Origin: Candidatus Shapirobacteria bacterium
GTDB lineage: Bacteria; Patescibacteriota; Microgenomatia; PFEM01; JAPLYW01
NCBI GenBank assembly: GCA_026395335.1
Contig: JAPLYW010000005.1
Coordinates: forward strand, 1-32,331
DNA length: 32,331 nt
Direction: 5' to 3'
A program made the translations under genes and the position numbers. Position 1 is the stretch's first letter; each line of letters begins with the position of its first letter. The notes below the pieces were generated by a model. The model saw nothing but the letters and a program-made list of their open reading frames with translations. It was not told where the DNA came from and made no database searches. Of the stretch, positions 1,617 through 23,626 are shown in pieces.

Positions 1617-1630
1617 TTTGAGTCTCCGAA

Positions 1631-1662
1631 AAACAAGGTTCTGTCGTTTCGACAGGTCCTTA
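1631..1662 (-). repeat. Dispersed hairpin element, copy 1 (groES-groEL spacer)
   Basis: Minus strand reads TAAGGACCTGTCGAAACGACAGAACCTTGTTT, 31/32 identical to 23579-23610. Confidence 0.95.
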
Positions 1663-1671
1663 TATTGTACT

Positions 1672-1995
1672 TTACTTAATAACCGCTAAAATATCTTCAA
1701 ATTTTACAAAAATATATTCCTTGCCAATCATTCCAAACTTGACTTCATCTCCGCCCCATTTTTTATAAATCACAATCTCACCAATTTTAAATTCAGGTTC
1801 AATTTTTTTCCCGGAATCAGTAATATGAGGTCCGCCCAAAGCAATAACTTTACCTTTTTGTGATTTCTCGTCATGAGTATCCGGAAGAACAATTCCTGTT
1901 GCTGTCTTCTTTTCCATCTCCACCGGCTCAATTAAAACATAACCAGCCATTGGTTTTAATTTTGGCAGAGAACTAATATTTTCCATTTTTGACAT
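1672..1995 (-). CDS. groES: Co-chaperonin GroES
   Basis: [12 protein letters not shown]...TATGIVLPD...GKVIALG...[10 protein letters not shown]...EDILAVI is the Cpn10 signature. Start could be 1986. Confidence 0.97.
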
Positions 1996-2030
1996 TGGGA
2001 TTAATTATCAATCAATACTAACAATTGCTT

Positions 2031-2059
2031 ATTGTAAAAAGATTGGTTGCTCTTGTCAA
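2031..2059 (-). promoter_or_regulatory. Sigma70 promoter of groESL
   Basis: Minus strand TTGACA (2059-2054), 17 bp spacer, TACAAT (2036-2031). Confidence 0.8.
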
Positions 2060-2098
2060 GAAGCTAATTAATAACTCTAACTCTTAACTTTTCTCCTA

Positions 2099-2107
2099 TG
2101 CTATACT
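2099..2107 (+). promoter_or_regulatory. Extended -10 promoter, probably giving a leaderless mRNA
   Basis: TG-C-TATACT followed 6 nt later by the ATG at 2114; no SD sequence. Confidence 0.6.
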
Positions 2108-2113
2108 TCAAGC

Positions 2114-2809
2114 ATGAATTTTAAAGAAGTTTTCTCTAACAATAAAGTAGTTTTACCAGTTGTTCATGTAAAAACAGAGAAACAAACACTTAACAATGTT
2201 TTTATTGCTAAAGAAAACGGAGCCGACGGAGCTTTTCTTATTAGTATGGAAGGAATGAACCATCATGATTTATTAAAAATGTATGAGGTTGTCCAAAAAG
2301 AGGTACCTACTTTTTGGCTTGGTATTAACTATCTTGATCTTAGAGCGATTCATGTTTTTGAAAATTTAAATAGTCATATAAACGGAGCCTGGGTTGATGA
2401 TGCTGAAATTTTTGAACAGGTAAATTTGCAGCTTAACGCCGAGAAAATTAGTGAGGCTAGGAAAAAAAGTGGTTGGAAAGGATTATATTTTGGCGGAGTT
2501 GCCTTTAAGTATCAGCGAGAAGTCAACAACTATAAAAAGGTAGCGGAAATTGCTAAACATTATATGGATGTTATCACTACTAGTGGAACACAAACTGGCT
2601 CAGCTCCTGATTTAAGAAAAATTGAAATTATGAAAGAAGCAGTTGGTGATTCACCTTTAGCTATTGCTAGTGGGATTTCTCCAGAAAATGTCGGTAAATT
2701 TAAAAAAGTCGCTGATTGTTTTTTAGTCGCTACCAGTATTCTCAAACCAGGAACTGAAGATTTTGATCCGTCAAAAGTTAAAGAATTAATTGAAGCTGTT
2801 AGAGGCTAA
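2114..2809 (+). CDS. BtpA/SgcQ-like TIM-barrel (ribulose-phosphate-binding barrel) protein
   Basis: LPVVH, GADGAFLI, WLGINYL, YFGGVAFKYQ, DVITTSGxxTGSAP, AIASGISPENV, FLVATS (C-terminal phosphate-binding-type motifs). Confidence 0.8.
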   Translation: MNFKEVFSNNKVVLPVVHVKTEKQTLNNVFIAKENGADGAFLISMEGMNHHDLLKMYEVVQKEVPTFWLGINYLDLRAIHVFENLNSHINGAWVDDAEIFEQVNLQLNAEKISEARKKSGWKGLYFGGVAFKYQREVNNYKKVAEIAKHYMDVITTSGTQTGSAPDLRKIEIMKEAVGDSPLAIASGISPENVGKFKKVADCFLVATSILKPGTEDFDPSKVKELIEAVRG

Positions 2810-2812
2810 TTA

Positions 2813-3331
2813 ATGAAAAAAGAACAAGAATTTAACCAGTTGGAAAATCAAATAGAAAAAATTATTAATGTTAATTCTACTAGTGAAAATGAAACAGAAA
2901 AGGTTTTAAGTAATTTAGCCCATACTCCATTCGATATGGATGGCAAACATTATGAATCAGTCGAGGGATTTTGGCAGGGATTGAAATTTCCTGAAGGAAG
3001 TGATGAAAGAGAAAAAATTGCTGAACTTTTTGGAATTGAAGCCAAAAAAGCCGGAAGAAAAGCAGAGGATTTAGCTGAATTTGAATACCAAGGTAAAAAA
3101 TTTAAAATTGGTTCAAAAGAACATCAAAAATTAATAAAAAAAGCAATCACTGCTAAACTTAAACAAAACCCTTCTGTTTTAAATTTACTATTAAAAACAG
3201 GCGAGAAAAAGATTACTCATATTCTTAAAAATTCTGTGGGACAGATTTCTCCTGATAGTAAAACCATTCCCGGAGAAAAATTTTGTCAAATCTTAATGGA
3301 TTTAAGGGAAGATTTCAGAAAAAAGTCATAA
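2813..3331 (+). CDS. NADAR-domain protein
   Basis: LSNLAHTPFDMDGKHYESVEGFWQGLKF...AKKAGR...AKLKQNP...LLLKTG...ILMDLRE matches the NADAR pattern. Starts 3 bp after the BtpA-like gene. Confidence 0.85.
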   Translation: MKKEQEFNQLENQIEKIINVNSTSENETEKVLSNLAHTPFDMDGKHYESVEGFWQGLKFPEGSDEREKIAELFGIEAKKAGRKAEDLAEFEYQGKKFKIGSKEHQKLIKKAITAKLKQNPSVLNLLLKTGEKKITHILKNSVGQISPDSKTIPGEKFCQILMDLREDFRKKS

Positions 3332-3332
3332 A

Positions 3333-3369
3333 AAAACCGGAGGGCTATTCACATAGACCTGCCGGTTTT
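3333..3369. terminator. Probable bidirectional intrinsic terminator
   Basis: AAAACCGG-AGG-GCTAT-TCAC-ATAG-ACCT-G-CCGGTTTT is an imperfect hairpin with A and T tails between convergent genes. Confidence 0.7.
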
Positions 3370-3381
3370 AATTTAAATTTT

Positions 3382-3669
3382 TCAGTTAATAACTTTTACT
3401 TTATCTTTCTTAGATATGATTTTCTTTTTTTGTCTTGCTAAAAATTTTTTAAATTTAAAAATATCTTTAACAAGATAATAAAGACAGAAACAAGCTAGAA
3501 TAAAGACAATTCCTAGTACAAAAATCGTTGAAGTTAAAGAAGAATTTACAATCTCCGTTACCAAAGGATTCCAAATACCTAAAAGGTATAAAGCAATTAC
3601 TAAAACCACGAATAAAAAACCAGATGTTCCTATACAGTCCCGTATAATATTACAAACATACTTTCTCAT
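3382..3669 (-). CDS. Hypothetical small membrane protein (2 TM segments, basic tail)
   Basis: Two hydrophobic stretches. ATG at 3669 has an AAGGAG SD and is preferred to the TTG at 3687. Confidence 0.65.
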   Translation of the reverse strand: MRKYVCNIIRDCIGTSGFLFVVLVIALYLLGIWNPLVTEIVNSSLTSTIFVLGIVFILACFCLYYLVKDIFKFKKFLARQKKKIISKKDKVKVIN

Positions 3670-3706
3670 TTCCTTCTCCTTAAACAAAAATATTAAGTTA
3701 ATAAGA

Positions 3707-4591
3707 TTATTTACAGATTGTTTTCTTCACTAACTCATAAAGTTTAATTAAACCTGCCAGAAGGGTTATCTGCTGTAAAGAATTATCAGCATTATTAGAA
3801 CTAAATCTATAACCTTTTCCTTCATCATCAGACCAATCAGTTGGGTTTAAACCACAAGCATCACCTGGACAAGATGTCGTAAATCTGCCTTTACCCCTTT
3901 TAAAGGTATAGAACTTGTTTTTCTCATAATCAGTGAGTGTGAACATTTTTTTGTAAGCAATCTGCATGGCGTTATTAACTTCTGGGATGTCAATTTCATC
4001 ATTACTTAAAGACATTAGCCATTGTTTAAAAGGAATGCTGATCTTTCCATATAGCGAACCACCCTGACCTCCTTTAGTAGTCACTGTCCGAACAGTCATT
4101 AGTTGAGAAAAAGATGCAGATGTTTCTTTTTCAGGAAATTCCAAAAAAGTAGTAAAAAAGGTAAAACTAGCGGAAATAGCACGGACTTGATCCCAGTCTA
4201 TGATAGATTCTTTACTAGTTCCATCACATAAAGCACACTTTTTTTTCAAGTATTTATCATACCCTGATCCGTTACAAAAATGGCATGTCTTCTTGGCTCC
4301 TTCTTTAGAAGAGGGTATTTTAATTAAAAACTCAATAAAGTTGTCTTTTTCACCTTGGTGTTTAAAAACTTTATTAAAACCAATATCTCCATTAAAATCA
4401 CTGGCGAATTCAGAAAACTTAAACTTATCCATTAAAGTCTTCATTGTGTAATGATTTTGTAAATTAATATGAAGATTTTCAATAAATTCTTTATGGACTC
4501 TTAGGATAATTGCCGGTATTTTTTCCTCAAAGGATAATTCATACCAGCAGGGAATGTTTTTGTACATAATTGAATCACGCACTTTAATCAC
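3707..4591 (-). CDS. Hypothetical protein with a DnaJ-type CxxCxGxG zinc-finger pair
   Basis: 294-codon ORF with CHFCNGSG...CALCDGT and CPGDACG. True start may be GTG at 4582, which follows a GAGGTG SD. Confidence 0.75.
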   Translation of the reverse strand: MIKVRDSIMYKNIPCWYELSFEEKIPAIILRVHKEFIENLHINLQNHYTMKTLMDKFKFSEFASDFNGDIGFNKVFKHQGEKDNFIEFLIKIPSSKEGAKKTCHFCNGSGYDKYLKKKCALCDGTSKESIIDWDQVRAISASFTFFTTFLEFPEKETSASFSQLMTVRTVTTKGGQGGSLYGKISIPFKQWLMSLSNDEIDIPEVNNAMQIAYKKMFTLTDYEKNKFYTFKRGKGRFTTSCPGDACGLNPTDWSDDEGKGYRFSSNNADNSLQQITLLAGLIKLYELVKKTICK

Positions 4592-4710
4592 CTCTTTTGA
4601 AGTAAAATTATTAAAAAGTTAAAGAACACTGAAAATTTATTTTAAAAGCAAATTGTTGGGATTTCCGCTTTTAGAAAACCTAAAATTTACTGAATAAACT
4701 AAGTAGGAAG

Positions 4711-4739
4711 AATATAAGTCAAAAAGAAGCAAAAGTCAA
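4711..4739 (-). promoter_or_regulatory. Sigma70 promoter for the 3707-4591 gene
   Basis: Minus strand TTGACT, 17 bp, TATATT. Confidence 0.6.
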
Positions 4740-4748
4740 ATAAAAAAT

Positions 4749-5492
4749 TTATTCATTTAAAGTCAAAAGAAACATTAGGCCAACCCCCAAAAGCAGACCT
4801 AAAAGTTGAATGAATGATTTGCCAATTTTAGTTTCTTTATGAAGCTCTGGAATTAAATCAGAACCAGCAATATAAATAAAATTACCGGCGGCAAAAGGGA
4901 TAATTAATTTACTGAAAATAATAATTTTGGCTCCAATCGCTAAAGTTAAAATGGCCCCCAGAACAGCTGTTAATGCCGAAATAAAGTTTAAGAACAAGGC
5001 TTTTTTATTAGTAAAACCGCCATGAATAAGAACGCTAAATTCTCCAATTTCCTGAGGGATTTCATGAAAAATAACCGCTAAACTGGTAGTTAAACCTAAA
5101 GAAAAACTTGTCATAAAACTAGCGGCCACGACCACACCGTCAATAAAGTTATGAAAGGCATCACCAATTAAATTCATAAAAACTACCGGATGTGGATGCT
5201 GACTTGAAGTTGGAATATGACAATGACGCCAGGCAATAAATTTTTCCAAAATGAAAAAGGCTAGAATGCCGCCTATAACCGCAAAAGAAAAACTGAAACC
5301 AGTTCCTAAATCATTAACCGCCTCAGGCAGAAGATGGAAAAAAGCTCCGCCTAACATACTTCCGGCTGCAAAACTAACTAAAAAGAATAAAATCTTTTGT
5401 AAAACTTCTTTTTTAAGGCATAAAAACAGAACACCAACAAAGGAGATTAAACTGATAATAAAAACGCTAATTAGAGAAAAAAACCAAATCAC
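4749..5492 (-). CDS. ZIP family metal (zinc/iron) transporter
   Basis: SFAAGSMLGGAFFHLLPEA, His-rich loop WRHCHIPTSSQHPH, GDAFHNFIDG, HEIPQEIGEF, FIYIAGSDLIPELH. Confidence 0.95.
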   Translation of the reverse strand: MIWFFSLISVFIISLISFVGVLFLCLKKEVLQKILFFLVSFAAGSMLGGAFFHLLPEAVNDLGTGFSFSFAVIGGILAFFILEKFIAWRHCHIPTSSQHPHPVVFMNLIGDAFHNFIDGVVVAASFMTSFSLGLTTSLAVIFHEIPQEIGEFSVLIHGGFTNKKALFLNFISALTAVLGAILTLAIGAKIIIFSKLIIPFAAGNFIYIAGSDLIPELHKETKIGKSFIQLLGLLLGVGLMFLLTLNE

Positions 5493-5614
5493 CTTTTTAA
5501 ACCTAATTTAATTAATCTTTTTTTGTATTCTAACATAATTGAAACATGACAGTCATTTGGATGAAAAAGTAAACGACCTTCCTCAATTACTTCTGTAGTT
5601 TTCTTTGAGGCCAT
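5489..5614 (-). CDS. Putative 41-aa small protein coupled to the ZIP gene
   Basis: ATG at 5614 gives MASKKTTEVIEEGRLLFHPNDCHVSIMLEYKKRLIKLGLKR. It fills the intergenic gap and its TGA overlaps the ZIP GTG (GTGA). Confidence 0.45.
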   Translation of the reverse strand: MASKKTTEVIEEGRLLFHPNDCHVSIMLEYKKRLIKLGLKR

Positions 5615-5637
5615 ATATTTTAATTGCCAATTTTTAG

Positions 5638-6312
5638 CTACGATTTCCAGTTTGGTAAGAATTTTTTGTACCATTGGTTCTCCTTTGAAAATTTTTGATA
5701 AACTTTTTCTCTTTGCCATAAAATTTTTAATTGACAAATTTCATGGGCTGTAAAAAGGTTTTGCTCAGATTTAGGAAAAGCTAAATGCTTTTCGTCTAAA
5801 AACATATTAAGACAAATTTTATCCTTAACTTTTTTATCTCCAGGTCGCCTTCGCTTTGAAACTAATTCTATTAAAAAAATTGTTAATAAGCGGGTTAACC
5901 AAAGTCTTTTTTGCCCAGTAATAATCAGTAAATCAATATCGTCATTTTCATCAGCATTCTTCATAGCTAAGTTACCAGTAACACTCACCATTTTAATAAA
6001 AGGGATTAATCTTAACCAATTAGCAACCTCCTGAGCTATTTTGGTTTTTTCCTGACTCCATTTAAATCGTTGAAGTCTTTGTTGAATAATTTTTTGGCGG
6101 TTTTTAAAACAATAAAAACCATCGTGATATGTGATATGTAATACAAGATAAGAATCTTCATTTAATTGCTTCCGTATCTCGTTTTGCGTCTCACGTCTTA
6201 CGTTGCCCGTATCACTTATTAAAAATTTATGGATTTCTTCCAAAGTTAACGGGTAAGCAAAAACATCAGCATAGGCTAATGTTTTTAAAATCTTTTCCTG
6301 AAACTCGACCAT
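5638..6312 (-). CDS. Nucleotidyltransferase-fold protein (CPR-type family)
   Basis: VSVTGNLA...DDIDLLII fits the Pol-beta-like G[SN]-x-DxD pattern; also KICLNMFL and terminal FLPN. ATG at 6312 is preferred because the TTG at 6357 lies inside the repeat element. Confidence 0.75.
   Translation of the reverse strand: MVEFQEKILKTLAYADVFAYPLTLEEIHKFLISDTGNVRRETQNEIRKQLNEDSYLVLHITYHDGFYCFKNRQKIIQQRLQRFKWSQEKTKIAQEVANWLRLIPFIKMVSVTGNLAMKNADENDDIDLLIITGQKRLWLTRLLTIFLIELVSKRRRPGDKKVKDKICLNMFLDEKHLAFPKSEQNLFTAHEICQLKILWQREKVYQKFSKENQWYKKFLPNWKS
6123..6214. repeat. Two degenerate 7-bp-period arrays inside the CDS
   Basis: CGTGATA TGTGATA TGTAATA CAAGATA (6123-6150) and CGTATCT CGTTTTG CGTCTCA CGTCTTA CGTTGCC CGTATCA (6173-6214). 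Confidence 0.8.
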
Positions 6313-6351
6313 AAATTTTTTTTCTATTTTGATCCGCCAGTTAGCGGAGAG

Positions 6352-6383
6352 AAACAAGGTTCTATCGTTTCGATAGGTTCTTA
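6352..6383 (-). repeat. Dispersed hairpin element, copy 2
   Basis: Minus strand TAAGAACCTATCGAAACGATAGAACCTTGTTT. Its two differences from copy 3 are a compensatory G-C to A-T stem pair. It is followed by a TCCGCTAACTGGCGGA hairpin. Confidence 0.95.
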
Positions 6384-7976
6384 CTTTGAATTTCCCAAAT
6401 CGTATTGGGAAAGAAGCTGTTTGACTCCTTGACTGGTTGTTTTCAAAATATCTGAAGCTGCGGACCCACCGTTTAAAGCATTAACTGCGTCTTCGTAATA
6501 TTTAATCATTTTATCGTTAATGCCATTATCAAAAGTCCCCGAGCAAAGATACCAAGTCTTGGCTTTAGCCGCTTGATTTATAAAAGGAGCCACTAAATTA
6601 TTATTTGTTAATAAACTGGCCATATCGGTTCTGGCATAAGGTTCACCAAATAATCGTACTTGTGACTGAGCTTGATAAAGTTTCTGAAGTTCCTCTTTAG
6701 AAGATAAAAATTTTAAAAAAGCCCAAGCTTCTTGCTGATGAGAGCTCCTTTTACCAATGCCTTCTATCCAAAAAGAAGCCCAGCCAATATCTGTCCCGGA
6801 TAATTGCGGAACAGGAATTACCCGAAAATCTAAATTAGGATTAATATTTTTAATTTCAAAAACATCCCAAGAATAGCCAAAATACATGGCTGTTTTGCCG
6901 GTAGCAAAAGCCAAAGTTGAAACAGGTAAAGTTTCATCCCAGACTCGATCTACATTATTAAAAATGGTATAAAAAGTTAAAGCATCTTCAGCTAAATTTC
7001 CGGTTGGTTGAGATAAATCTACGCCATTTTGTAACATCATTAATCCTAAAATATCAGACCAATGGTCAACGTTACTGGTATTGCCCAAAGCTACACCAGC
7101 CGTTTGAATTCGGCCGCTTTCATCCCGAACTGTCAAGTCCAAAGCTAGTTGTCTTAATTGATCCCAAGTGGTTGGCGGTGTTTTACCGGCAGCTTGAAAA
7201 ATTTGTTGATTATAAAAAAGAGCTAGATTGTCAATCTCAAGGGGTAAACCTAAAAAAGAAGTCCCGGAACGCAAATTTTCTTTAGCCACCGGATAAAAAG
7301 TATTCTCAAACTCCGTTGCACTCATTACTTCTGTGGGAACAGCTTGTAATTCATTTTTTAACATCGGTAACCAAGTAATATGGAAACGAAAAATATCCGG
7401 ACCTTCGTTACGAGCCAAAGCGGACTGTAATCTTTCCCGATATTCTTTCGGAGATTGCTGGGAATAACTAATCTTAATATTAGGATTTTTACTCTCCCAT
7501 TCACTAATAATTTCTTTCATAACATTCTCTGGCTCCCATAAACCCCAATAAGTCAAAGTTATTTGTTTTTGTTTTTGTAAACGAGGAATTAATAATTTAA
7601 AAACAGCAAAACCACCAAAAACCAAGATTATTAAAATTAATAAAATTGTCAGAATTTTTTTAAAACCGAACTTAGGCTTCTCATTCAAATTAAAATCATT
7701 AGACTCGTTAATTAATTTAGCGGCTGCTTCTTCCGGTGAAGAAAAACTTTTTTCTTCCGTCCCAAAATTTTGAGCATTTCCCTCAAAATTTTTTCCAAAA
7801 TCCTGCGTAGAAGAGTTATTTGTCTCAGGAAAAATTGGTTGCGCTTGATAAGAAGGTTGCGGAAAATCATTTTCAACTAGAGGTTTTTCTTCTTTAGGCG
7901 GTAAAGAAGTTTCTTTTTCTTCTGCAGGAAAAGAACTCGTTAAATCTTTTGACGGAAAAAAACTTTGGTCAGGCAT
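6381..7976 (-). CDS. Membrane-anchored extracellular solute-binding protein (family 1, sugar-type)
   Basis: Low-complexity N-terminus, one TM segment, then TLTYWGLWE, GPDIF, LALFYN, PPTTWDQL, FATGKTAMYFG. Confidence 0.9.
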   Translation of the reverse strand: MPDQSFFPSKDLTSSFPAEEKETSLPPKEEKPLVENDFPQPSYQAQPIFPETNNSSTQDFGKNFEGNAQNFGTEEKSFSSPEEAAAKLINESNDFNLNEKPKFGFKKILTILLILIILVFGGFAVFKLLIPRLQKQKQITLTYWGLWEPENVMKEIISEWESKNPNIKISYSQQSPKEYRERLQSALARNEGPDIFRFHITWLPMLKNELQAVPTEVMSATEFENTFYPVAKENLRSGTSFLGLPLEIDNLALFYNQQIFQAAGKTPPTTWDQLRQLALDLTVRDESGRIQTAGVALGNTSNVDHWSDILGLMMLQNGVDLSQPTGNLAEDALTFYTIFNNVDRVWDETLPVSTLAFATGKTAMYFGYSWDVFEIKNINPNLDFRVIPVPQLSGTDIGWASFWIEGIGKRSSHQQEAWAFLKFLSSKEELQKLYQAQSQVRLFGEPYARTDMASLLTNNNLVAPFINQAAKAKTWYLCSGTFDNGINDKMIKYYEDAVNALNGGSAASDILKTTSQGVKQLLSQYDLGNSK

Positions 7977-8029
7977 GATATAAGTTCCCCAATAAATTTG
8001 TCTGTTATACTAATGTTATCATAGACGAA

Positions 8030-10896: not shown

Positions 10897-10902
10897 GACA
10901 AG

Positions 10903-14301: not shown

Positions 14302-14313
14302 AAAACTATCTTA

Positions 14314-16773
14314 TCATTTTATAAGACTAAATTCAAAGACTAAATCTTGATCAAAACTAGGACTGAGAAAAAGTCCTTCGGTTGTTTGAGCAAACTTTAA
14401 TTTATCGACCAAAGCTGTAACACCTATTGACGGTTGAAGCCAAAAGTTAAAACTCTCATCTTGAATCCCAGGTTGTTTTTGTAGAAAAAATAAATAATGA
14501 CCAATCTCTGATTCCCATTTTTCATCTAACTGATAAACAATCTCTACTGAACGTTTTTCTTGAATTGGAACCTCTATTAAAAATCCAAAAACCTGATAGT
14601 TATGATCTTGTTTTATCTCTCTATCGGTAATTTCTTCTACCTGCCCTGTTTGATTATTAGTAACTTTTAAGCTTATTAATTTACTATTTAATGGAGTATA
14701 AAGTCTAATATAGCTTTTATAACGACCAGCTGGAAAAGCTTCTGAAGGCGATGTATTTTGGTAATCAAGACGTAAAGTTTCTTTAATATCTCCATTTTCT
14801 TCTATTTTTATTTGATGAGAAAGGCTTCTTTTTAAAAAGTAATTGGCTTTATTAATTCCAACATTTGCTTCTATCACCATTAAATAGTCATTTAAACACT
14901 TCGTGTTTGTTACCTGGCACCTAACATTTTTTATCTCTCCTCCCCATGCCAACTCTTGAGCGATCAGTGTCGCTTTATCATCATAAAACCATAAAATTAA
15001 ATCTTTAGCCTTTAAAGAAGGTAATAAATTTTTAGCTAAGCCAAACCAAATTTTCTGATCACCCTGTTTAATTTTTTCAAACAAAACACGAGCAACACTG
15101 CCCAAAAAATCTTGCTTTTGAGTTGAACCTGGGAAAAAATTAATCTCCGAATGGTATTCAGCTCTTTCAAAAAAATTGTCAGCATTAATTTTTTCTTGAT
15201 AATCAGGTAGTTCTATCTCGCCGATTGATTTTAAAATCCGCTGGGCTAAAAACAAATTGACGCCAATTACCCCATCAACTTTTCGACCGGTTTCCTTCTC
15301 CAAAAACCAAGCTGCTTTCAAAGCTGATGAAGGGAAATCAGGATCCCAGTTAGAATCACGAAAATACCAACCGGCTTCACCTAAATATTTTTTCAAATCT
15401 TCCGGCGGCTCAACATGACCTTTTAATTGTCCATCAGCGCTATAAACGTCTTTAATCTCAAAATCCACTAATTGGCCTTCATCAAGAGTTAAAAGACCAA
15501 AACTACCGATAAAACCACCGGTCGGCCGTAACTCACTATTATTTTGGAAAAGAATTAAATAAGTCTGTTTTTTCTCTAAACCAATTAATGAAGGCAAAAG
15601 TTCAATCCCCTTTCTGGCTTGAAGAATAAGATCTCTAGCTTCTTTTAATTGTTCTTTCTCCGGCCGATCACCTATTTGGCTTTCTGCTAAAGAAAGTTGG
15701 CTAAAACTTTGGTCCAGATTAATTTTTATCTCTTTAATTGAGCTATCAATAGACAACGGTTCTTTTTGAAAAATAGATTTTAGGAGACCTTCTAATTGCA
15801 ATGTCGCCTGTAAAAAATTATCAAGACCTTCCGAAACCGTCTCTCCTAAATTTAACAATTTGTTTAATTGTGTTGTTTTCTCCTGACTGAAAAAGTTTAA
15901 AAGTGGGGTTATTTGCCCTAACTGCTCTTCACTTTTCTGAAAAGAATTTAAGGCCGTATCAGCCTGATGGCTGGCTTTTAATAAATTCCCTTGAGTTAAA
16001 GAATTTTTCGCTTGCTTTAAATTTTGTACGCCTAAAAGGCTCCAAAAACCTAAAGAAAGAAAAGGGTAAAAAATTGCTAAAATTAGTAAAGTAATTAAAA
16101 AAGAAATGACGGCTTTTTTGGAAAAAACTTTTGGCAAAATGGGCTTTTTTATTTCTAATTTTTCTTTTTTCGGTTGGTCTTTTAATTGAAAGGATTTCTC
16201 TAATTCCTCTAACCCTTGACTTAGATCAACTTTAGTTTGCCAACCAAGATTTTTATTATTTTCTAAAAGAAAAAATGATTTACCCTTAGTTCCATTACCA
16301 AACATAGCTTTTAACAAACCATAAATAAAATCAGAAATAAAAATCGCTTTTTCTTTTATCGTCCCATCTAAATGTAAGAATTTTTGGTACTCCTTTAAAA
16401 CCATCCCCGGACCATAAACATAAGCAAAACGAATGATTCTAACATTAAGTTTTTTTTCAAAAGATAACTGAATAATTTTATCTTCTAAAGAATCTTTTTC
16501 TGATAATGATGGCAAGGCAAAAAGAAGTTTCGCTTGTGGAGAAACAGAGTCAAGAACTTCTTTGATTAAAACCCAATTTTGATGAAAACAAAAAACATAA
16601 TTGCCTTTTTTAAAAACTTCTAAATCTAAATTTCTAGTAAAAGAAATTGATTGGCAATTGTACAAAAGCAAAGCTTTGTTTAAAAATTCATTGACAAAAT
16701 TTTCTCCGCCAACAATTAAAACTAAAGGTTTTTCTTGACTCTCGCCAACTCTGTGAAAAATTTTATCATTCAT
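14314..16773 (-). CDS. DUF4012-domain membrane protein with a degenerate N-terminal epimerase-like region
   Basis: YLILFQNNSELRPTGGFIGS, RDSNWDPDFP, VDGVI, NVGINKANY; TM segment near residues 220-245. Confidence 0.85.
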   Translation of the reverse strand: MNDKIFHRVGESQEKPLVLIVGGENFVNEFLNKALLLYNCQSISFTRNLDLEVFKKGNYVFCFHQNWVLIKEVLDSVSPQAKLLFALPSLSEKDSLEDKIIQLSFEKKLNVRIIRFAYVYGPGMVLKEYQKFLHLDGTIKEKAIFISDFIYGLLKAMFGNGTKGKSFFLLENNKNLGWQTKVDLSQGLEELEKSFQLKDQPKKEKLEIKKPILPKVFSKKAVISFLITLLILAIFYPFLSLGFWSLLGVQNLKQAKNSLTQGNLLKASHQADTALNSFQKSEEQLGQITPLLNFFSQEKTTQLNKLLNLGETVSEGLDNFLQATLQLEGLLKSIFQKEPLSIDSSIKEIKINLDQSFSQLSLAESQIGDRPEKEQLKEARDLILQARKGIELLPSLIGLEKKQTYLILFQNNSELRPTGGFIGSFGLLTLDEGQLVDFEIKDVYSADGQLKGHVEPPEDLKKYLGEAGWYFRDSNWDPDFPSSALKAAWFLEKETGRKVDGVIGVNLFLAQRILKSIGEIELPDYQEKINADNFFERAEYHSEINFFPGSTQKQDFLGSVARVLFEKIKQGDQKIWFGLAKNLLPSLKAKDLILWFYDDKATLIAQELAWGGEIKNVRCQVTNTKCLNDYLMVIEANVGINKANYFLKRSLSHQIKIEENGDIKETLRLDYQNTSPSEAFPAGRYKSYIRLYTPLNSKLISLKVTNNQTGQVEEITDREIKQDHNYQVFGFLIEVPIQEKRSVEIVYQLDEKWESEIGHYLFFLQKQPGIQDESFNFWLQPSIGVTALVDKLKFAQTTEGLFLSPSFDQDLVFEFSLIK

Positions 16774-16810
16774 AAATTCAATTTTTACATAACTAATGTG
16801 AAAAGCAGAA

Positions 16811-17254: not shown

Positions 17255-18577
17255 TTAAAAAATTTTACCTTTCTGTTTAATTAACTGCATTAAAGTTTTT
17301 GGAAAACCAAATAAAGAAGGGACAACACCAATTGTTTTATAAATAAAAATGCTAGTAGCAATTAAAACTAAAAATTCTGTAGCTACAGTTATCATCGCCG
17401 CTCCCCAATAAGAAAAATAAGGAATAACAATTAAGTTTAAAACAACATTAAAAACCAAAGCAGAAAAAGCTATAAAAAAATAAGAGTTTTGTTTTTTTAA
17501 ACTAACTAAAGTATAACCGGTTAAATGATTAAAATAAGAAAGAAAAATAGCAAAAGATAAAATCCTTAAAATAGAAATCGTGTCAAAAAATTCTCCAAAA
17601 CGGTTTAGGGTTAAAATCCTAATAATTAATGGGGAACCAAAAAAACCGAATAAAAATATTATTAATCCCATTATCAGTAAAACATCAAAAGATTTTTGAT
17701 AAATAATTTTAAATTTATTACGCCAGTCGTCTTTTGTCGCGTATTGGGAAATAACCGGTAATAAAGAACTCATTAAATAAGCTGCCCCTAAAATTAAAAC
17801 ATCATAAACACGATAAGCGACCGCATAAATTCCAACTGCGTCTGCTCCTTTTAAGTAGCCCAACATTACCGTATCGATTTTATTATCAACCGTAAACATT
17901 AATAATACTGCTCCCATTGGTAGAGACTCAAACAAGAAATTTTTTATAAATTGTCTATCAATTTTGAGATGAAAACGGATTGTCTTAACAGCTAAGAATC
18001 CAACCGTAAAAACCGCAACAATATTAGCTATTAATATCGCTCCGATTAAAGCCATTAAACCTAAATGCATTTTAATAAAAATCCAGGAAATTAGAAAAAC
18101 CAAAGCGCTGGCTAAAATATCAGCTACTGCTAATTTTTGCATCTGCATCTTTGTTTGGAAAATTAAGCCAAAAGAAGCCTTAATCGCAAAAAGGATTAAA
18201 ATTAAAGAACCTAATAAAATCCCCTGACGAATAAGCAGATAATTAGAAATCCCTAGCGGCAGCAAAAAAGCCAATCCAATCATTAAACAGGCTCCAAAAA
18301 AAGCTAGGACTAAACGGATAAAAAAAACATTAACTAAAATTTCATCTTGTTTTTCTTTAACCCTAGAGGCTTCCCTAACCCCAATTGTGGCTGTTCCCCA
18401 ATCAGAAAAAGCACCAAAAATAGTTACTAAAGTTAAAATATACATGTAGTTACCATAACCTTCGCGACCCAAAGAAGAGGTCAATAAAATCATCGTCGCC
18501 AAGCCAAAACAAACAGTAACGATTTTAGTGACTATTTGGATTATGGTATTAAGGGCAACCTTTTGCGAAAGATGCAT
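17255..18577 (-). CDS. Wzx-like polysaccharide flippase
   Basis: Multi-TM protein with KVALNT, LGREGYG, IDTVML, VGIYAVAY, LNLIVIPYFSYWGAA. Confidence 0.9.
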   Translation of the reverse strand: MHLSQKVALNTIIQIVTKIVTVCFGLATMILLTSSLGREGYGNYMYILTLVTIFGAFSDWGTATIGVREASRVKEKQDEILVNVFFIRLVLAFFGACLMIGLAFLLPLGISNYLLIRQGILLGSLILILFAIKASFGLIFQTKMQMQKLAVADILASALVFLISWIFIKMHLGLMALIGAILIANIVAVFTVGFLAVKTIRFHLKIDRQFIKNFLFESLPMGAVLLMFTVDNKIDTVMLGYLKGADAVGIYAVAYRVYDVLILGAAYLMSSLLPVISQYATKDDWRNKFKIIYQKSFDVLLIMGLIIFLFGFFGSPLIIRILTLNRFGEFFDTISILRILSFAIFLSYFNHLTGYTLVSLKKQNSYFFIAFSALVFNVVLNLIVIPYFSYWGAAMITVATEFLVLIATSIFIYKTIGVVPSLFGFPKTLMQLIKQKGKIF

Positions 18578-18597
18578 AAATCAATTATACCCGCTCT

Positions 18598-19878
18598 TTA
18601 ACTTAATTTCGACCAAGACAAACCAAGAACAATAGTTAAAAGAAGCTGATTTTGTTGAAGAGTTAACCAATAATGGTCATTCAGCCCTAAAAACAACACC
18701 GTTGTTAACCCCAATATTAAGACTAGATAAGAAGACAATAAACGACTAAACAATCTACGATAAGTTAAGATTAAAAACCAAACAAAAATAATCAATCCGG
18801 TAAATCCAGTTTCTGCAGCTATAAGAAAATAAATATTATGAACCGGTTGTAGCCAATAAGTAAAACCGACTAAAGACCAATAATCAGGAAGACGAGTAAT
18901 AAAATTATTTAAGCCAACTCCCGACAAAGGAAAATTTCTAATCATTAGTAAAGCTGACTCCATTAATTGTTTTCTTTGGGAAAAAGCTTCATTAGTAGAA
19001 AAATAGGGGACAACAACAATTAATAAACAGCTAAAAAGAAAAAATAAAGAAGAAATAAAAAAAAGCTTTTTCTTTTGAAAATGATTTTTATGAATTATAA
19101 AATAAAAAACGGCCATTAAACTCAAAAACCAAACCGAGCGAGAGAAACTAACAATTATGGTTAATCCCCCTAAAATAAAAGCCAAGTATTTAATCGACTT
19201 GATTACTTTATTTTTTCCCACCGACCAATTACTTAATAAAATTAAACTTACTAGAAGAAAACCAGCCAAAGCATTAGGATGAGCAAAAATCCCATAAGGC
19301 CGCAAAACTAACCGACCATTAAGAATAGTTTTAGCAATTCCCGGAGTAGCTAAATCAAAAGTTCGTTCTCCCAACCACCAGAAAATACCGTTTAAAGAAC
19401 CTTGTTTTAAAAACTGGCCTAAAGCAATTAAAGAAGAATAGACTACTGCCCCGGCAAGTGGATACTGGATATAAGGAAACCTTGTTTCTCGAAGCTCGAA
19501 ATTAGATACTGGATACTGATTCTTAGCGATATAAAATCCAAGCAGGGTAAACTCAACGATTTTGGCAAATTTATAAAAGGCTACCCCTTGGTTTTGAGCT
19601 AAAAAAGCATTGACCAAAAGAAAAACAAAAATTGTAAAAACCCACCAGCAGCTCCTTAATATCTTACGTATTACATATCTCTTATCACGTATCCCCCAAA
19701 CCCACAAGAATAAAATTAAAAAAACTAAAATGTCGGTTAAATAAAGAGTAGGAGATAAATAATCAACTTTTAAACCTAAAACATAACTCCAATTTGGCCA
19801 AAAATGTTTTCCTAGCTGAAAAGGTAAAAGCAGTATTAATAACCAAAAAAAATTCTGATGAAGCTTTTTTTTAAACAT
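18598..19878 (-). CDS. O-antigen ligase/polymerase (Wzy_C) family membrane protein
   Basis: RPYGIFAHPNALAGFL, SFSRS, PLSGVGLNNF, PVHNIYFLIAAETG. Confidence 0.88.
   Translation of the reverse strand: MFKKKLHQNFFWLLILLLPFQLGKHFWPNWSYVLGLKVDYLSPTLYLTDILVFLILFLWVWGIRDKRYVIRKILRSCWWVFTIFVFLLVNAFLAQNQGVAFYKFAKIVEFTLLGFYIAKNQYPVSNFELRETRFPYIQYPLAGAVVYSSLIALGQFLKQGSLNGIFWWLGERTFDLATPGIAKTILNGRLVLRPYGIFAHPNALAGFLLVSLILLSNWSVGKNKVIKSIKYLAFILGGLTIIVSFSRSVWFLSLMAVFYFIIHKNHFQKKKLFFISSLFFLFSCLLIVVVPYFSTNEAFSQRKQLMESALLMIRNFPLSGVGLNNFITRLPDYWSLVGFTYWLQPVHNIYFLIAAETGFTGLIIFVWFLILTYRRLFSRLLSSYLVLILGLTTVLFLGLNDHYWLTLQQNQLLLTIVLGLSWSKLS
19469..19502 (+). repeat. Dispersed element, copy 4: 'empty' form lacking the central hairpin, antisense within the CDS
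   Basis: ATATAAGGA|AACCTTGTTTCTCGAAGCTCGAAAT aligns to copy 1 ATATAAGGA[CCTGTCGAAACGACAG]AACCTTGTTTTTCGGAGACTCAAAAT. Flanked by GATACTG heptamers. Confidence 0.75.
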
Positions 19879-19899
19879 AGCAAAAAACAGGGGACAGTT

Positions 19900-20352
19900 T
19901 TAAGCTTTCCGTTTAATAACGACATGTCTTTGTTCGCCTTCACCTTCAGAAACTGTTTCAACTTCTGAATGATTGGCTAAAACTAAATGGACAATTCTTC
20001 TTTCAAAAGAAGACATCGGAGGTAAAATTTGGCTTTGACCGGAAACTTTAACTTTTTCTGCCATATTCATCGTCATTCTTTCTAAAACCTCTTTTCTTTT
20101 TTCCCGATAGTCCTCAACATCAACTAAAATCCTTACCCATTCTCCTAATTTTTTAAAAGCTATCATTGTTATCATTTGCTGCAGAGCAGCCAACGCTTGA
20201 CCATGATAGCCAATCAAAACCCCTGGTTCATCAGTTTTAAATTGGATAATAAAAACATCTTCTTCTTTTTTAATAGTGAAATTAACTTTCATTTGAAGAA
20301 GATCAAATAGTTCTTGAGTTATTTCTTTAAGAATTTTATCTTGTTTATCCAT
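19900..20352 (-). CDS. jag: Jag/KhpB/EloR RNA-binding protein (KH + R3H, no Jag_N domain)
   Basis: GVLIGYHGQALAALQ, DVEDYRE, PPMSSFERRIVH, SEGEGEQRHVVI; follows yidC. Confidence 0.9.
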   Translation of the reverse strand: MDKQDKILKEITQELFDLLQMKVNFTIKKEEDVFIIQFKTDEPGVLIGYHGQALAALQQMITMIAFKKLGEWVRILVDVEDYREKRKEVLERMTMNMAEKVKVSGQSQILPPMSSFERRIVHLVLANHSEVETVSEGEGEQRHVVIKRKA

Positions 20353-21131
20353 GGTTTTAGACCTCCCCAACCACTAATATAATATTGTTGGACAACAGTT
20401 GATAGAGAAAAAATAAACCAATAAAGGACTAGACCTGAAGGAAAAGTAAAGCCGATAAAAATAGTCATTAAAGGAAAAAGATAAAGCATTTGTCGTTGCA
20501 TAGAAGTAGCCATGTCATCAGTTTTTGTTTCTGTTTTTTCCGCCTCTTTTTGGAGATTGGCTACTTCCGGCATCATCATTTTTGAAGAAATAAACTGAGA
20601 AAGGGCCGCTAAGATTAAGAATAGTCCGGGTAAAGGAAAGGAAAGACCATTTAAATGAAAAACATCAGGAGTAGCTAAGTTAAGATACCAAAATCGAGTA
20701 TTAATTATTGTCCCTTCAGCTAATTTTAAAGAAGGATATAAAATTTGATTTAATCTCGCGATTACATCACCATTCGACCGCAAAACTCCGATAAAAGCCT
20801 GATATAAGGCAATTAAAATAATTAACTGAACAATTTGCGGCAAACAACCGGCAGCCGGATTAGCCCCATGCTGACGATAAAGTTCCATTTGAGCTTGCGC
20901 TAACTTTTTCTTATCATCGGCGTATTTCTTTTTTAATTTTTCCAACTCCGGCGCTAATTCTTTTATTTTCTGAGCGGCTCTCATAGAAGGAAGAGTTAAA
21001 GGCACTAAAAGACCTCTAATAATTAGAGTTAAGACGATAATTGCCAACCCAAAATTATGAAAAAGAATTTCATAAAAAAAGATTAAAGCATTTACAATTG
21101 GATGATAAAGTAATGTTCCCCAGAGTGACAT
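20319..21131 (-). CDS. yidC: Membrane protein insertase YidC
   Basis: NFGLAIIVLTLIIR, ELYRQHGANPAAGCLP, FPSGLVLYW. Confidence 0.96.
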   Translation of the reverse strand: MSLWGTLLYHPIVNALIFFYEILFHNFGLAIIVLTLIIRGLLVPLTLPSMRAAQKIKELAPELEKLKKKYADDKKKLAQAQMELYRQHGANPAAGCLPQIVQLIILIALYQAFIGVLRSNGDVIARLNQILYPSLKLAEGTIINTRFWYLNLATPDVFHLNGLSFPLPGLFLILAALSQFISSKMMMPEVANLQKEAEKTETKTDDMATSMQRQMLYLFPLMTIFIGFTFPSGLVLYWFIFSLSTVVQQYYISGWGGLKPWINKIKFLKK

Positions 21132-21133
21132 AA

Positions 21134-21367
21134 TTATTTTTTCTTTTTTTTGAGTGGTAGAGAATCAAGGCCACCTTTTGACCAAGGATGACAGCGGCTA
21201 ATTCTTTTTAATCCCAACCAACTTCCTCGAATTATACCATAATAATTAATTGCTTGATAAGTGTATTCTGAACAGGTTGGTTGGAAACGGCAAGATTGAT
21301 GCCAGAAAATTAAAAAGGGTGTTTTTTTCTGATAAAACCGAATTAAAGATAAAACACTTTTCTTCAT
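21134..21367 (-). CDS. yidD: Membrane protein insertion efficiency factor YidD
   Basis: [10 protein letters not shown]...[14 protein letters not shown]. Confidence 0.96.
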
Positions 21368-21376
21368 TTAAGAAAA

Positions 21377-21742
21377 TTAAGAAATAAGCTTCGCTTTCTG
21401 AAGAATTAATCTAACCTCCTCTTTAACTTGAAAGTAATTTACTTCAGTCATTAATTTTTTTACTAAAAAAACACCATCAAAGTTTTTTTTAGTTTCATTT
21501 TTCAAAGACCAAATAACCTCTGATAGCCAACGCCGTAAACGATTACGAATAACCGCTTTTTTACTCACTTTATTGGAAATAATAAAAGCAAATCTTGAAG
21601 CTTGATTTATATCAGTTTCAATTCCATTAGAAATTTGCGGAGCAACCAATAAACCGAACAGACTCCCTTGAATAAGTTTTCCTTCTTTTTTAATACGATT
21701 AAATTCTGTTCGAAGAGGCAACCGATATTTTTTCGGAAGCAT
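21377..21742 (-). CDS. rnpA: Ribonuclease P protein component
   Basis: MLPKKYRL, FIISNKVSKKAVIRNRLRR; conserved synteny. Confidence 0.95.
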   Translation of the reverse strand: MLPKKYRLPLRTEFNRIKKEGKLIQGSLFGLLVAPQISNGIETDINQASRFAFIISNKVSKKAVIRNRLRRWLSEVIWSLKNETKKNFDGVFLVKKLMTEVNYFQVKEEVRLILQKAKLIS

Positions 21743-21751
21743 ATAATAAAT

Positions 21752-21892
21752 TTAAAGAGTTAATTTTTTACGTCCCTGCAACCTTCGACGTTTGATAACT
21801 TTACGACCATCATGGCTTGCCATTTTCTTAAGAAAACCGTGTTTACGGACTCTTTTGAGTTTTTTTGGTTGATAAGTTCTTTTAGTCGCCAT
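21752..21892 (-). CDS. rpmH: 50S ribosomal protein bL34
   Basis: [24 protein letters not shown]...[10 protein letters not shown]; start reassigned to ATG at 21892. Confidence 0.97.
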
Positions 21893-21942
21893 TGAGTTAA
21901 GAATACATAAAAAAAAATTCAAAAACAAGAGGAAAATTATCA

Positions 21943-21972
21943 TTGACAAATTGTGGATAACCTTGTTAAATT
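21943..21972 (+). promoter_or_regulatory. dnaA promoter with an embedded DnaA box
   Basis: TTGACA (21943-21948) and TG-T-TAAATT (21964-21972), with a perfect DnaA box TGTGGATAA (21952-21960) in the spacer. Confidence 0.75.
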
Positions 21973-22006
21973 AAATTATTATCTTCTGCCCTACTTTCAA
22001 ATTACC

Positions 22007-23383
22007 ATGGATAAAGAAAAGATTTGGTCCAATGTCTTGGAAAATTTAAAATTGACTCTTTCTTCGGCCAATTTTGCCACTTGGTTTAACCGTACTTTTA
22101 TTACCGAAATTAAAGAAATTGACGAAATCAGACAAATTACAGAGATTGGTTGCCCTTCCTCTTTTATCAGCAGCACTGTAGAAAATCGTTATTATGCCCT
22201 AATTAAAGAAGCCATAGATCAAATTACTAAAAAGAAAAATGATTTGGTTTTTGTGGTTAAACAAAGTAAAGAACCTCTAAATAAAAACCCAAAGTTAGCC
22301 AACGAACCTCTTTTCAAAGAAATAAAAGAAGAAAAAACCGAAATGGAAAATGCTTTAAAAAAAATCGGTTTAAAAGCGGATTTTACTTTTGATAGTTTTG
22401 CGGTTTCTTCATCAAATCAAATGGCCCATGCTGCTGCTTTAGCTGTCGCTCAAACACCAGCCAAAGCCTACAATCCTTTGTTTCTTTATGGTGGAGTAGG
22501 GGTGGGTAAAACTCATTTGATACAGGCCATCGCTCATGAAATTCTTAAAAAAAATAACCAGGCAAAAATTATTTATTGTATGGGCGAAGAATTTACTAAT
22601 GAAATTATTAATGCTATCCGCGAAAAAGCCACTAAAGAATTTAAGGAAAAATACCGTTCTACTCATTTATTAATGGTTGATGATATTCAATTTATCGCTG
22701 GTAAAAATACAGTTCAGGAAGAATTTTTTCATACTTTCAATGCTATCTGGCGGGCTGGTGGACAAATTGTTTTGACTTCTGACCGCCGCCCGGAAGAAAT
22801 TAGTAAATTAGAGGACCGTTTACGTTCGCGTTTTGAAGGAGGATTAATTATTGATATTCAACCGCCGGATTTTGAGCTAAGAACGGCTATCCTTTTAATT
22901 AAAGCCCAACAAAAAAATATTCAACTTCCCATGGATGCAGCCCAACTAATTGCCAGTAATATTACTTCTATCCGTAAAATGGAAGGTTTCCTTACCCGTT
23001 TAATCAGTGAAGTTCAAACTAAAAAAGTAACGATTAATCCTGATTTAATTACGGCTATTTTAGGCCAGACAAATGGTTTAATTAATCCGCAAAAATTAGT
23101 TAAGCCTAAAGAAGTTTTAAGTACAGTCGCTAATTTTTATAATCTCAGAATAGCAGATCTTACTAATCAAAAAAGGGATAAAAAAATAGTTGTTCCTAGA
23201 CAAATTAGTATGTACCTTTTACGTAATGATTTAAAAATAGCCTTAATGGATATCGGCCGCTTTTTAGGAGATAGGGACCATACTACAATAATGCATGGTG
23301 TGGAAAAAATTACTAGACTTTTACCTGACTCTGAGGATTTGCGTGTTGATATTATGGGGATAAGAAAAAAACTTTATGGATAA
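22007..23383 (+). CDS. dnaA: Chromosomal replication initiator DnaA
   Basis: YNPLFLYGGVGVGKTHL, DDIQF, QEEFFHTFN, RLRSRFEGG, RDHTTIMHG. ATG at 22007 is preferred to GTG at 21953. Confidence 0.99.
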   Translation: MDKEKIWSNVLENLKLTLSSANFATWFNRTFITEIKEIDEIRQITEIGCPSSFISSTVENRYYALIKEAIDQITKKKNDLVFVVKQSKEPLNKNPKLANEPLFKEIKEEKTEMENALKKIGLKADFTFDSFAVSSSNQMAHAAALAVAQTPAKAYNPLFLYGGVGVGKTHLIQAIAHEILKKNNQAKIIYCMGEEFTNEIINAIREKATKEFKEKYRSTHLLMVDDIQFIAGKNTVQEEFFHTFNAIWRAGGQIVLTSDRRPEEISKLEDRLRSRFEGGLIIDIQPPDFELRTAILLIKAQQKNIQLPMDAAQLIASNITSIRKMEGFLTRLISEVQTKKVTINPDLITAILGQTNGLINPQKLVKPKEVLSTVANFYNLRIADLTNQKRDKKIVVPRQISMYLLRNDLKIALMDIGRFLGDRDHTTIMHGVEKITRLLPDSEDLRVDIMGIRKKLYG

Positions 23384-23520
23384 GAATTTAAAGTTTTACA
23401 CTTATCCACAATTAATTTAAAGTTATCAACTGGTTTTTAAACAGAAATAAAACCCAAAAGGCGTAATTAAAAAAGATGAATTATTCACTTATCCACAAGA
23501 CTACTAATACTACTATTTTA
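23355..23520. other. Replication origin oriC (DnaA boxes and DnaA-trios)
   Basis: Perfect TTATCCACA at 23402 and 23489, an overlapping degenerate TTATTCACT at 23481, one-mismatch reverse boxes at 23355 and 23375, then ACTACTAATACTACTATT (23500-23517). Confidence 0.88.
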
Positions 23521-23531
23521 AACATAAAAGG

Positions 23532-23560
23532 TTGATAGAAGTAATTTTGTAGGATACAAT
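23532..23560 (+). promoter_or_regulatory. Sigma70 promoter of dnaN
   Basis: TTGATA, 17 bp, TACAAT. Confidence 0.65.
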
Positions 23561-23578
23561 TATTATATAATAATAAAA

Positions 23579-23610
23579 TAAGAACCTGTCGAAACGACAG
23601 AACCTTGTTT
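23579..23610 (+). repeat. Dispersed hairpin element, copy 3 (dnaN leader)
   Basis: TAAGAACCTGTCGAAACGACAGAACCTTGTTT, ending 16 nt before the dnaN ATG. Confidence 0.95.
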
Positions 23611-23626
23611 TTTTGTAAACAAAAAA

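Follow-up and report, generated by a model that had tools for sequence, protein, structure and literature searches.

A two-hairpin repeat at gene junctions of a Candidatus Shapirobacteria genome is probably a miniature mobile element

The genomes of the Patescibacteria, or Candidate Phyla Radiation (CPR), count among the most streamlined known, and mobile DNA is usually described as scarce in them. Among known short repeats, repetitive extragenic palindromes (REPs) typically lie outside genes, at their 3' ends, and Correia elements are flanked by TA. Mycobacterial interspersed repetitive units (MIRUs), described as small open reading frames (ORFs) that couple translation, are short sense-oriented repeats that lie between the cistrons of operons, sometimes in tandem, and touch the surrounding stop and start codons. 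According to the passages of one account that deal with them, Correia and enterobacterial repetitive intergenic consensus (ERIC) elements can alter expression through promoters or through RNase III or RNase E sites, and Rickettsia palindromic elements (RPEs), found in Rickettsia, measure about 150 bp (PMC10969869). REP super-families carry a GTAG/CGTC tag, as given in the corresponding portion of a second account (PMC3733652). Here we analyse a short repeat in a stretch of 32,331 nucleotides (JAPLYW010000005.1, hereafter the window), which is contig C25 of a Candidatus Shapirobacteria genome (G000; 457.6 kb in 30 contigs, 93.6% complete, 93% coding). An earlier reading made from the window's sequence alone (the sequence-only reading) had singled out three copies of a 32-nt hairpin element upstream of groEL, dnaN and a nucleotidyltransferase gene, and had proposed a cis-regulatory or translation-initiation RNA, a protein-binding operator or a REP-like micro-mobile element. 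We conclude that the repeat probably belongs to a family of miniature, non-autonomous mobile elements, made of two adjacent imperfect hairpins, that colonise gene junctions.

The three 32-nt copies, at 1631-1662 (-), 6352-6383 (-) and 23579-23610 (+), are exact (0 mismatches), with no match in 100 shuffles and none expected by chance. The distances of 14, 39 and 16 nt to the start codons are correct, and both the flanking direct repeats AGRACCU...AGAACCU and the compensatory exchange of G-C for A-U in copy 2 are present. Pattern scans of the whole genome showed that these 32 nt, although real, are one module (hairpin 1) of a longer modular repeat; by the covariance model described below, copies 1 and 3 run on into the AUG. 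The full unit reads, in order, U-AAG, an AAC loop, CU-variable stem-AG, a second AAC loop and CUUG, then UUUY, a UC loop, a variable stem, a second UC loop and RAAA-U. Hairpin 1 therefore combines a lower stem (U)AAG/CUU(G), a symmetric AAC/AAC internal loop and an upper stem whose sequence and length vary from copy to copy between CU and AG. Hairpin 2 adjoins it directly, with a UUUY/RAAA lower stem, a symmetric UC/UC loop and a variable upper stem that may be as small as one pair capped by a tetraloop or as large as a 6-bp stem forming a 16-nt palindrome, and a U lies directly 3' of the hairpin. A unit may stand alone, lack the upper stem of hairpin 1 or be part of a tandem array; the element measures 30-63 nt and the net insertion 30-57 nt. 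Read on one strand, a copy is T[AAG...RAAA]T, with a body that begins with AA and ends with A. We found no terminal inverted repeats: the 5' end (UAAGAAC...), compared with the 3' end (...UCRAAAU) in reverse complement, has only the flanking T/TA in common with it, and each end folds on itself as a hairpin of its own. We aligned 57 distinct units, all of which carry the UAAG tag on the 5' side and CUUG on the 3' side, with MAFFT; a covariance model made from this alignment gave 35 matches in the genome and four in the window.

The variable parts of the unit are held together by pairing. From 204 instances, drawn from this genome and from fetched loci, we obtained 132 distinct hairpin 1 inserts of 9-28 nt between the flank anchors; these form on average 3.78 uninterrupted nested pairs, against 0.62 when shuffled and 1.71 when their halves are mismatched. 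Across the 57 aligned units, 92.6% of the cells are paired (81.6% in shuffles) and 109 cells are changed on both sides (37.8 in shuffles), a count reached by none of 500 shuffles, while sliding the partners brings pairing to at most 47.6% of the cells. As for the Y-R pair of hairpin 2, 31 units have C-G and 16 have U-A, and it is left unpaired in 9. Covariation thus favours the stems, a well-supported result that bears out the structural conservation proposed from the sequence; moreover, only one strand can form the fold, because of an invariant U.G pair. They also bear on the idea of a DNA operator, in which a regulator would bind the palindrome and its direct repeats for a heat-shock control of groEL, dnaK and dnaJ resembling that of the controlling inverted repeat of chaperone expression (CIRCE). 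Copies do precede these three genes and the core is indeed a palindrome, but that palindrome differs between copies, as the 132 inserts show, the conserved flanks are direct repeats spaced by anything from 7 to more than 20 nt, the constraint acts on pairing and not on sequence, the U.G pair ties the fold to one strand, and copies are also found before a tRNA gene, before ribosomal protein genes and inside ORFs. We therefore regard an operator as highly improbable.

The element matches no RNA family that we could recognise, in agreement with the sequence-only reading. Rfam returned no match at gathering score in the window, the best weak ones being RAGATH-30 (15 bits, gathering score 59.5) and EF3314_EF3315 (18 bits, gathering score 100). 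In the literature searched, supplements aside, no description of the element was found, and its 12-13-mers occur in none of the papers searched. Resemblances to the K-turn and to Mini-III sites (ACCU) were considered and dropped, as the strands do not fit these motifs.

Copies inside genes are one sign of mobility. Five ORFs, with family names from Pfam where matched, contain a copy in-frame that is missing from all orthologues aligned: a GTPase ORF (51 nt, sense, absent from 9 orthologues), a ComF-like ORF (39 nt, sense, absent from 5), an amine-oxidase-like ORF (36 nt, antisense, absent from 3), a PBP-like ORF (57 nt, antisense, absent from 5) and, in the window, a Wzy_C ORF (30 nt or 10 residues, antisense, absent from 5/5). 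These copies add 10-19 residues to the proteins, and the net lengths of all five insertions fit the body plus its flank. At the three sites that could be read at the DNA level, the orthologue has one T(A) where the filled site has T(A) on both sides (3/3). Thus, the element inserts at a T, usually in TA, which then brackets the copy. The short target-site duplication expected of MITEs (transposable elements of the miniature inverted-repeat kind) is accordingly found at 3/3 such sites, at a length of 1-2 nt that is ambiguous with insertion beside a T. Longer duplications were considered, since direct repeats of at least 10 nt flank 3 of 36 copies (one being an overlap within a tandem array) against about 0.8% in mismatched controls, but we do not claim them because the net gain in the 11-nt case is just 30 nt.

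RPEs are found repeatedly as in-frame insertions in unrelated genes, and here such insertions are seen in five ORFs. Both RPEs and the present element are small palindromic repeats without a gene of their own that lie between genes and, in-frame, inside unrelated housekeeping genes of a reduced genome, as far as the RPE portion of the source goes (PMC10969869). They differ in that RPEs measure about 150 bp and are reported from Rickettsia, whereas this element adds 30-57 nt and occurs in metagenome-assembled genomes (MAGs) of Patescibacteria, the comparison being one of descriptions and not of sequences (PMC10969869, same portion). Ends that rebuild codons and a placement from stop to start codon belong to this element and are not among the RPE features described in that portion (PMC10969869).

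Gene junctions compared between relatives also show lineage-specific presence and absence. In a 20-kb ribosomal-protein region compared with the nearest genome, G002, the element lies upstream of rplQ and rplM in this genome only, the genes overlapping in G002, and upstream of rplE in G002 only. Upstream of fusA, rpsJ, rplF and infA both genomes carry it, with the same flanks and unrelated upper stems, and infA has an extra unit in this genome where G002 has GGAGG. Between the map stop and infA, a stretch of about 40 nt is kept between the two genomes though the flanking units differ (L212, ~15816-15860; L217); it is possibly an infA leader structure. The groES-groEL spacer was compared more widely. 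The element is missing from 25/25 genome relatives in which the groEL start was found, one of them with a 91% identical GroEL. Among 75 metagenome relatives, 6 have the full element from the groES stop to the groEL start, seven have a 5-nt spacer, GAACC, and nothing else, and 12 have GGAGG. Filled spacers read ...RAAA-UAA(N)-AUG, and matching empty spacers exist in relatives. In other lineages, a different repeat of 36-46 nt occupies this spacer, begins with UAAG and ends with ...GUCGAARG just before the AUG (loci L015, L016, L245-L248, L269, L297); judged by its sequence, it looks like a sister family.

The element is patchy on a broader scale as well. Of 41 relatives, this genome counted, 9 contain the exact flank pattern, at 0 to 26 copies per genome over the whole set, with no match anywhere for a reversed-pattern control; the family of this genome has three other members in the set, two of which lack the element by the same exact pattern. 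Of 151 genomes taken from across the phylum, 5 gave matches to the covariance model; one of these belongs to another class and has 20 copies. When one genome per species was scanned, multi-contig matches appeared, among the matches listed, in MAGs titled Nealsonbacteria, Shapirobacteria, Parcubacteria, Paceibacterota, Berkelbacteria, Desantisbacteria and 'Patescibacteria group', and the singletons elsewhere fit the roughly estimated 20 or so chance matches. Taken together, lineage-specific presence and absence, five in-frame genic insertions, T(A)-bracketed sites and a patchy spread favour the micro-mobile option of the sequence-only reading.

We then turn to the placement of the copies with respect to codons. 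At 11 of 38 unit starts, the UAA of the element is the stop codon of an upstream ORF of at least 80 codons, against a TAAG background of 1.9%, and nine more unit starts lie within 36 nt of an upstream stop codon. At the other end, 17 of the 31 intergenic copies are fused to the AUG of an ORF of at least 40 codons and 6 more lie within 60 nt of a start; of the remaining ones, five lie at 61-330 nt, mostly as upstream members of tandem arrays, and three have no start. With AA at the front of the body and A at its back, a copy that enters at the T of a stop or start codon restores UAA or AUG, which accounts for both the 11/38 stop-codon and the 17/31 AUG-fused counts. An A precedes the U in 17/17 fused copies, as expected for the orphaned A of an ATG. 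The genes behind the copies include groEL, dnaK, dnaJ, fusA, rpsJ, rplF, rplM, infA, dnaN and genes resembling pnp and that of RNase J. Intergenic copies in this genome are almost all sense to the adjacent gene, and where gene direction and local GC skew conflict, 4/4 follow the gene. A replication-strand cause of this orientation was considered and set aside: the element lies on the G-rich strand in 30 of 36 cases and genes in 381 of 511, and the two effects are confounded. The strand bias expected from the window thus holds within this genome, but not in another lineage (G052/G104), where a sense ORF lies within 70 nt of only 8 of 22 copies.

MIRUs offer a parallel for this placement, being likewise intercistronic, sense, sometimes in tandem and in contact with the flanking stop and start codons. 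They belong to another taxon, and the present element shows no coding constraint outside its genic copies and has a conserved two-hairpin fold.

A simple scheme may link these features. A putative strand-specific mobilising enzyme would read the conserved stem bases and internal loops on single-stranded DNA, the apical stems being presumably free to vary. Insertion at the T of a stop codon would rebuild UAA on the left and leave the remainder of the old codon on the right; insertion at the T of an ATG would leave an orphan A on the left and rebuild AUG on the right. In a genome that is almost entirely coding, selection would spare sense copies at junctions and in-frame copies in tolerant protein loops. 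Copies would then be co-transcribed, with the two hairpins bringing the AUG and the hairpin junction next to the stop codon (or to the 5' end), so that the downstream gene could still be translated without a Shine-Dalgarno (SD) site. Pushed further, this becomes a 'stop-to-start cassette', a selfish insertion whose ends rebuild UAA and AUG, and whose hairpins juxtapose the codons. It would let ribosomes that have just completed the upstream gene, or that bind a structurally 'leaderless' 5' end, begin the next gene with no SD site, and in some Patescibacteria it would have become the main start context of chaperone, ribosomal-protein and replication genes. We offer this extension tentatively and consider it doubtful as a whole.

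The same placement could suggest the reverse history, namely a vertically inherited cis-acting mRNA leader that would serve as an SD-independent (re-)initiation signal, or as a 5' or intercistronic stabiliser, for highly expressed genes. In addition to the 23/31 intergenic copies that end within 60 nt of a sense start, 17 of them fused to the AUG, and to the set of chaperone, translation and replication genes served, several observations agree with it. SD-like tetramers are scarce in this genome, as the sequence-only reading supposed (71 of 485 genes by a crude count with rough gene starts), and by the same count only 1 of 29 element-bearing upstream regions has one. GGAGG is found in relatives at infA, and at groEL in the 12/75 loci noted above: copies stand in place of SD sites seen in relatives. 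The stems covary, -10-like hexamers lie just upstream of several copies, and in the 4/4 conflicting cases copies follow the gene and not the skew. Against a leader, the element is absent from the 25/25 orthologous groES-groEL spacers of genome relatives, and it occurs in 5 of the 151 genomes sampled from the phylum. Five copies lie inside ORFs, three of them antisense; the 8/22 sense copies of G052/G104 are far from the near-complete sense bias seen here, and some copies precede a tRNA-Leu gene or the canonical promoter of the next gene. The cis-regulatory option has evidence on both sides: sense orientation, AUG fusion and replaced GGAGG sites speak for it in this genome, and the other lineage does not follow. 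As the origin of the element, we consider an inherited leader unlikely. A role in translation acquired by a mobile element is nevertheless plausible, and SD-independent re-initiation of the downstream gene would be a reasonable model for it.

Two further readings were dropped. Pairing with 16S rRNA could not be read in the genome itself, which has no 16S gene, and the 3' region of the 16S of a relative, G016, offers only an 8-nt complement, ACCUUGUU to AACAAGGU, in a normally paired region; we dropped it because about one such 8-mer is estimated to be expected by chance. The anti-SD in this 3' region is canonical. A promoter is equally out of keeping with the unit: the G016 16S gene is preceded by TTGACA-N17-TATTAT, and the element has no such pair and varies in its internal spacing. 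As a separate observation, the 16S genes of G016 (L007) and G002 (L008) have large insertions near their 3' ends, and that of G002 appears to contain an ORF, a putative homing-endonuclease gene.

The full units in the window illustrate these placements. Copy 1 (1614..1666, minus strand), recognised by the covariance model (55.1 bits, E 9.5e-10), by its exact 32-nt match and by its fold, lies between groES (1672-1995) and groEL (3-1616); hairpin 1 occupies 1631-1662, hairpin 2 follows, and the unit closes with the groEL start codon (1616-1614). Copy 2 (6325..6387, minus strand; 49.2 bits; exact match at 6352-6383) has as its first UAA (6383-6381) the stop codon of a solute-binding-protein gene (6381-7976), an ORF of 542 codons. 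Its hairpin 2 has a long, near-palindromic upper stem, a UAG follows the unit, the next ORF starts at 6312, and the open-reading-frame listing places a TTG start inside the copy. Copy 3 (23575..23629, plus strand; 49.9 bits; exact match at 23579-23610; fold z = -4.4) lies directly after the dnaA-dnaN spacer with its TTATCCACA boxes; its hairpin 2 is formed by a U-run and an A-run, and its last three nt (23627-23629) are the dnaN start codon. From their sequences, copies 1 and 3 read as insertions into the groEL and dnaN start codons, and copy 2 as one that entered the solute-binding-protein gene at its stop codon. The model added a fourth copy (19468..19503, plus strand; 27.4 bits, E 6.5e-4), a unit without the full upper hairpin (short hairpin 1 plus hairpin 2) that lies antisense and in-frame, over 10 codons, in the O-antigen-ligase-like ORF 18598-19878 (-), the Wzy_C ORF mentioned above. 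The statement that all copies are intergenic therefore holds for the three first listed, but not for this one. Likewise, Pfam confirmed groEL and dnaN as downstream genes, along with groES and dnaA, but the 'nucleotidyltransferase' after copy 2 is unconfirmed, because ORF 5638-6312 (-) matches no Pfam family at E<=0.001.

Around these copies, the dnaA-dnaN spacer (23384-23560) contains at least two TTATCCACA (DnaA-box) motifs and the cumulative GC skew reaches its minimum near 20-22 kb of the window, so that an oriC-like region adjoins copy 3. Elsewhere in the genome, a perfect 16-nt palindrome makes up the upper stem of hairpin 2 in several units (for example C17:6077-6094, C19:6803-6820 and C7:11478-11495) and is also found on its own, ORF interiors included, with 16 matches to a loose pattern in the genome; it may be a second, nested micro-repeat. 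At C30:20056-20440 (locus L214), a 204-nt tandem duplication holds seven hairpin-1 units upstream of a 318-codon ORF.

The link to upstream stop codons raises another alternative, a REP-like or terminator-like RNA element of the upstream gene, whose 3' hairpin and U-run would end or stabilise the transcript. It would be served by the 11/38 unit starts at a stop codon and the nine close to one, by the UUUY directly after hairpin 1, by those copies that sit between convergent genes or before the TTGACA-N17 promoter of the next gene, and by the fold of copy 3, which resembles an A-tract, hairpin and U-tract. But the element also lies inside operons expected to be co-transcribed, such as groES-groEL and the ribosomal-protein operons, and the layout may not suit a terminator: what the U-run adjoins is the weak lower stem of hairpin 1 (3-4 pairs and a 3x3 loop) and not its strong upper stem, which is 8-9 nt away, and the run is itself paired in hairpin 2, with covariation. 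Moreover, copies 1 and 2 have unremarkable folds (z = -1.2 and -1.9). We consider this reading improbable.

The element can also be set beside known mobile systems. Correia and ERIC MITEs are, like this element, short, multi-copy, non-autonomous, mostly adjacent to genes and co-transcribed, the last being presumed here (PMC10969869, in its part on these elements). This element differs in that it has no terminal inverted repeats, is three- to six-fold smaller and is accompanied by no IS630- or IS110-type transposase in the genomes searched. REPs with their REP-associated tyrosine transposases (RAYTs) and IS200/IS605-derived elements share with it imperfect hairpins, a short foot tag, the absence of inverted terminal repeats, a strand-specific fold and tandem clusters. 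The GTAG/CGTC tag of REPs, as given in the relevant portion of the source, is absent, the tag here being UAAG (PMC3733652). In addition, copies here are fused to start codons, at variance with REPs. Y1 (HUH) transposase genes are present in this genome too, at C15:5035-5721 (-), C7:11849-12523 (-) and C17:2151-2933 (+), but they do not co-occur with the element across genomes and other hairpins flank them. Strand-specific hairpins with conserved feet and loops, together with insertion beside a very short target, suggest by analogy that the element may work like IS200/IS605-derived elements, among which we do not claim membership. On the same contig as one of the Y1 genes, at C7:13033-15619 (L043, L213), a reverse-transcriptase-like ORF (337 aa) adjoins an ORF of 420 aa, a layout like that of a diversity-generating retroelement.

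Several points weigh against a mobile element. The same genes, encoding EF-G, DnaJ, DnaN, YidC and a glycosyltransferase, bear the element in distant families, and the flanks are kept at orthologous sites of this genome and G002 while the stems change; an old functional leader would also give both patterns. All of the 'empty sites' come from orthologues at 55-91% protein identity and not from strains, and the 1-2-base 'duplication' is indistinguishable from insertion beside a T without duplication. The units were picked by a fixed-flank pattern, so that the lower stem of hairpin 1 is invariant by the choice of units and lies outside the covariation test. Finally, transposase searches, which covered DDE_3 (IS630 type), DEDD_Tnp_IS110 and Y1_Tnp, pointed to no partner: DDE_3 and DEDD_Tnp_IS110 had no match in the 5 element-rich genomes. 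Of the 41 relatives, 26 have Y1_Tnp genes, namely 4 of the 9 with the element and 22 of the 32 without it, and the three of this genome have on both sides a short hairpin repeat of their own, unrelated to the element; the Y1 link was dropped on both counts. Weighing these points against the insertions in five ORFs and the bracketed sites, we still hold that a family of miniature mobile elements is the probable explanation.

What sets this element apart from the known kinds is its size, a two-hairpin architecture without inverted ends, termini that rebuild codons and a placement from stop to start codon. In one of these small genomes, the regions where translation of essential, highly expressed genes starts are occupied by an element of 30-63 nt present in about 35 copies, which in addition lies inside five proteins. 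Such a family will make gene callers mis-set starts, as with the TTG in copy 2, and it provides a testable handle on translation start in organisms with few SD-like motifs. If the codon-rebuilding ends and the juxtaposing fold hold true, the element shows a way for a parasite to settle among genes that overlap or abut and yet leave them intact.

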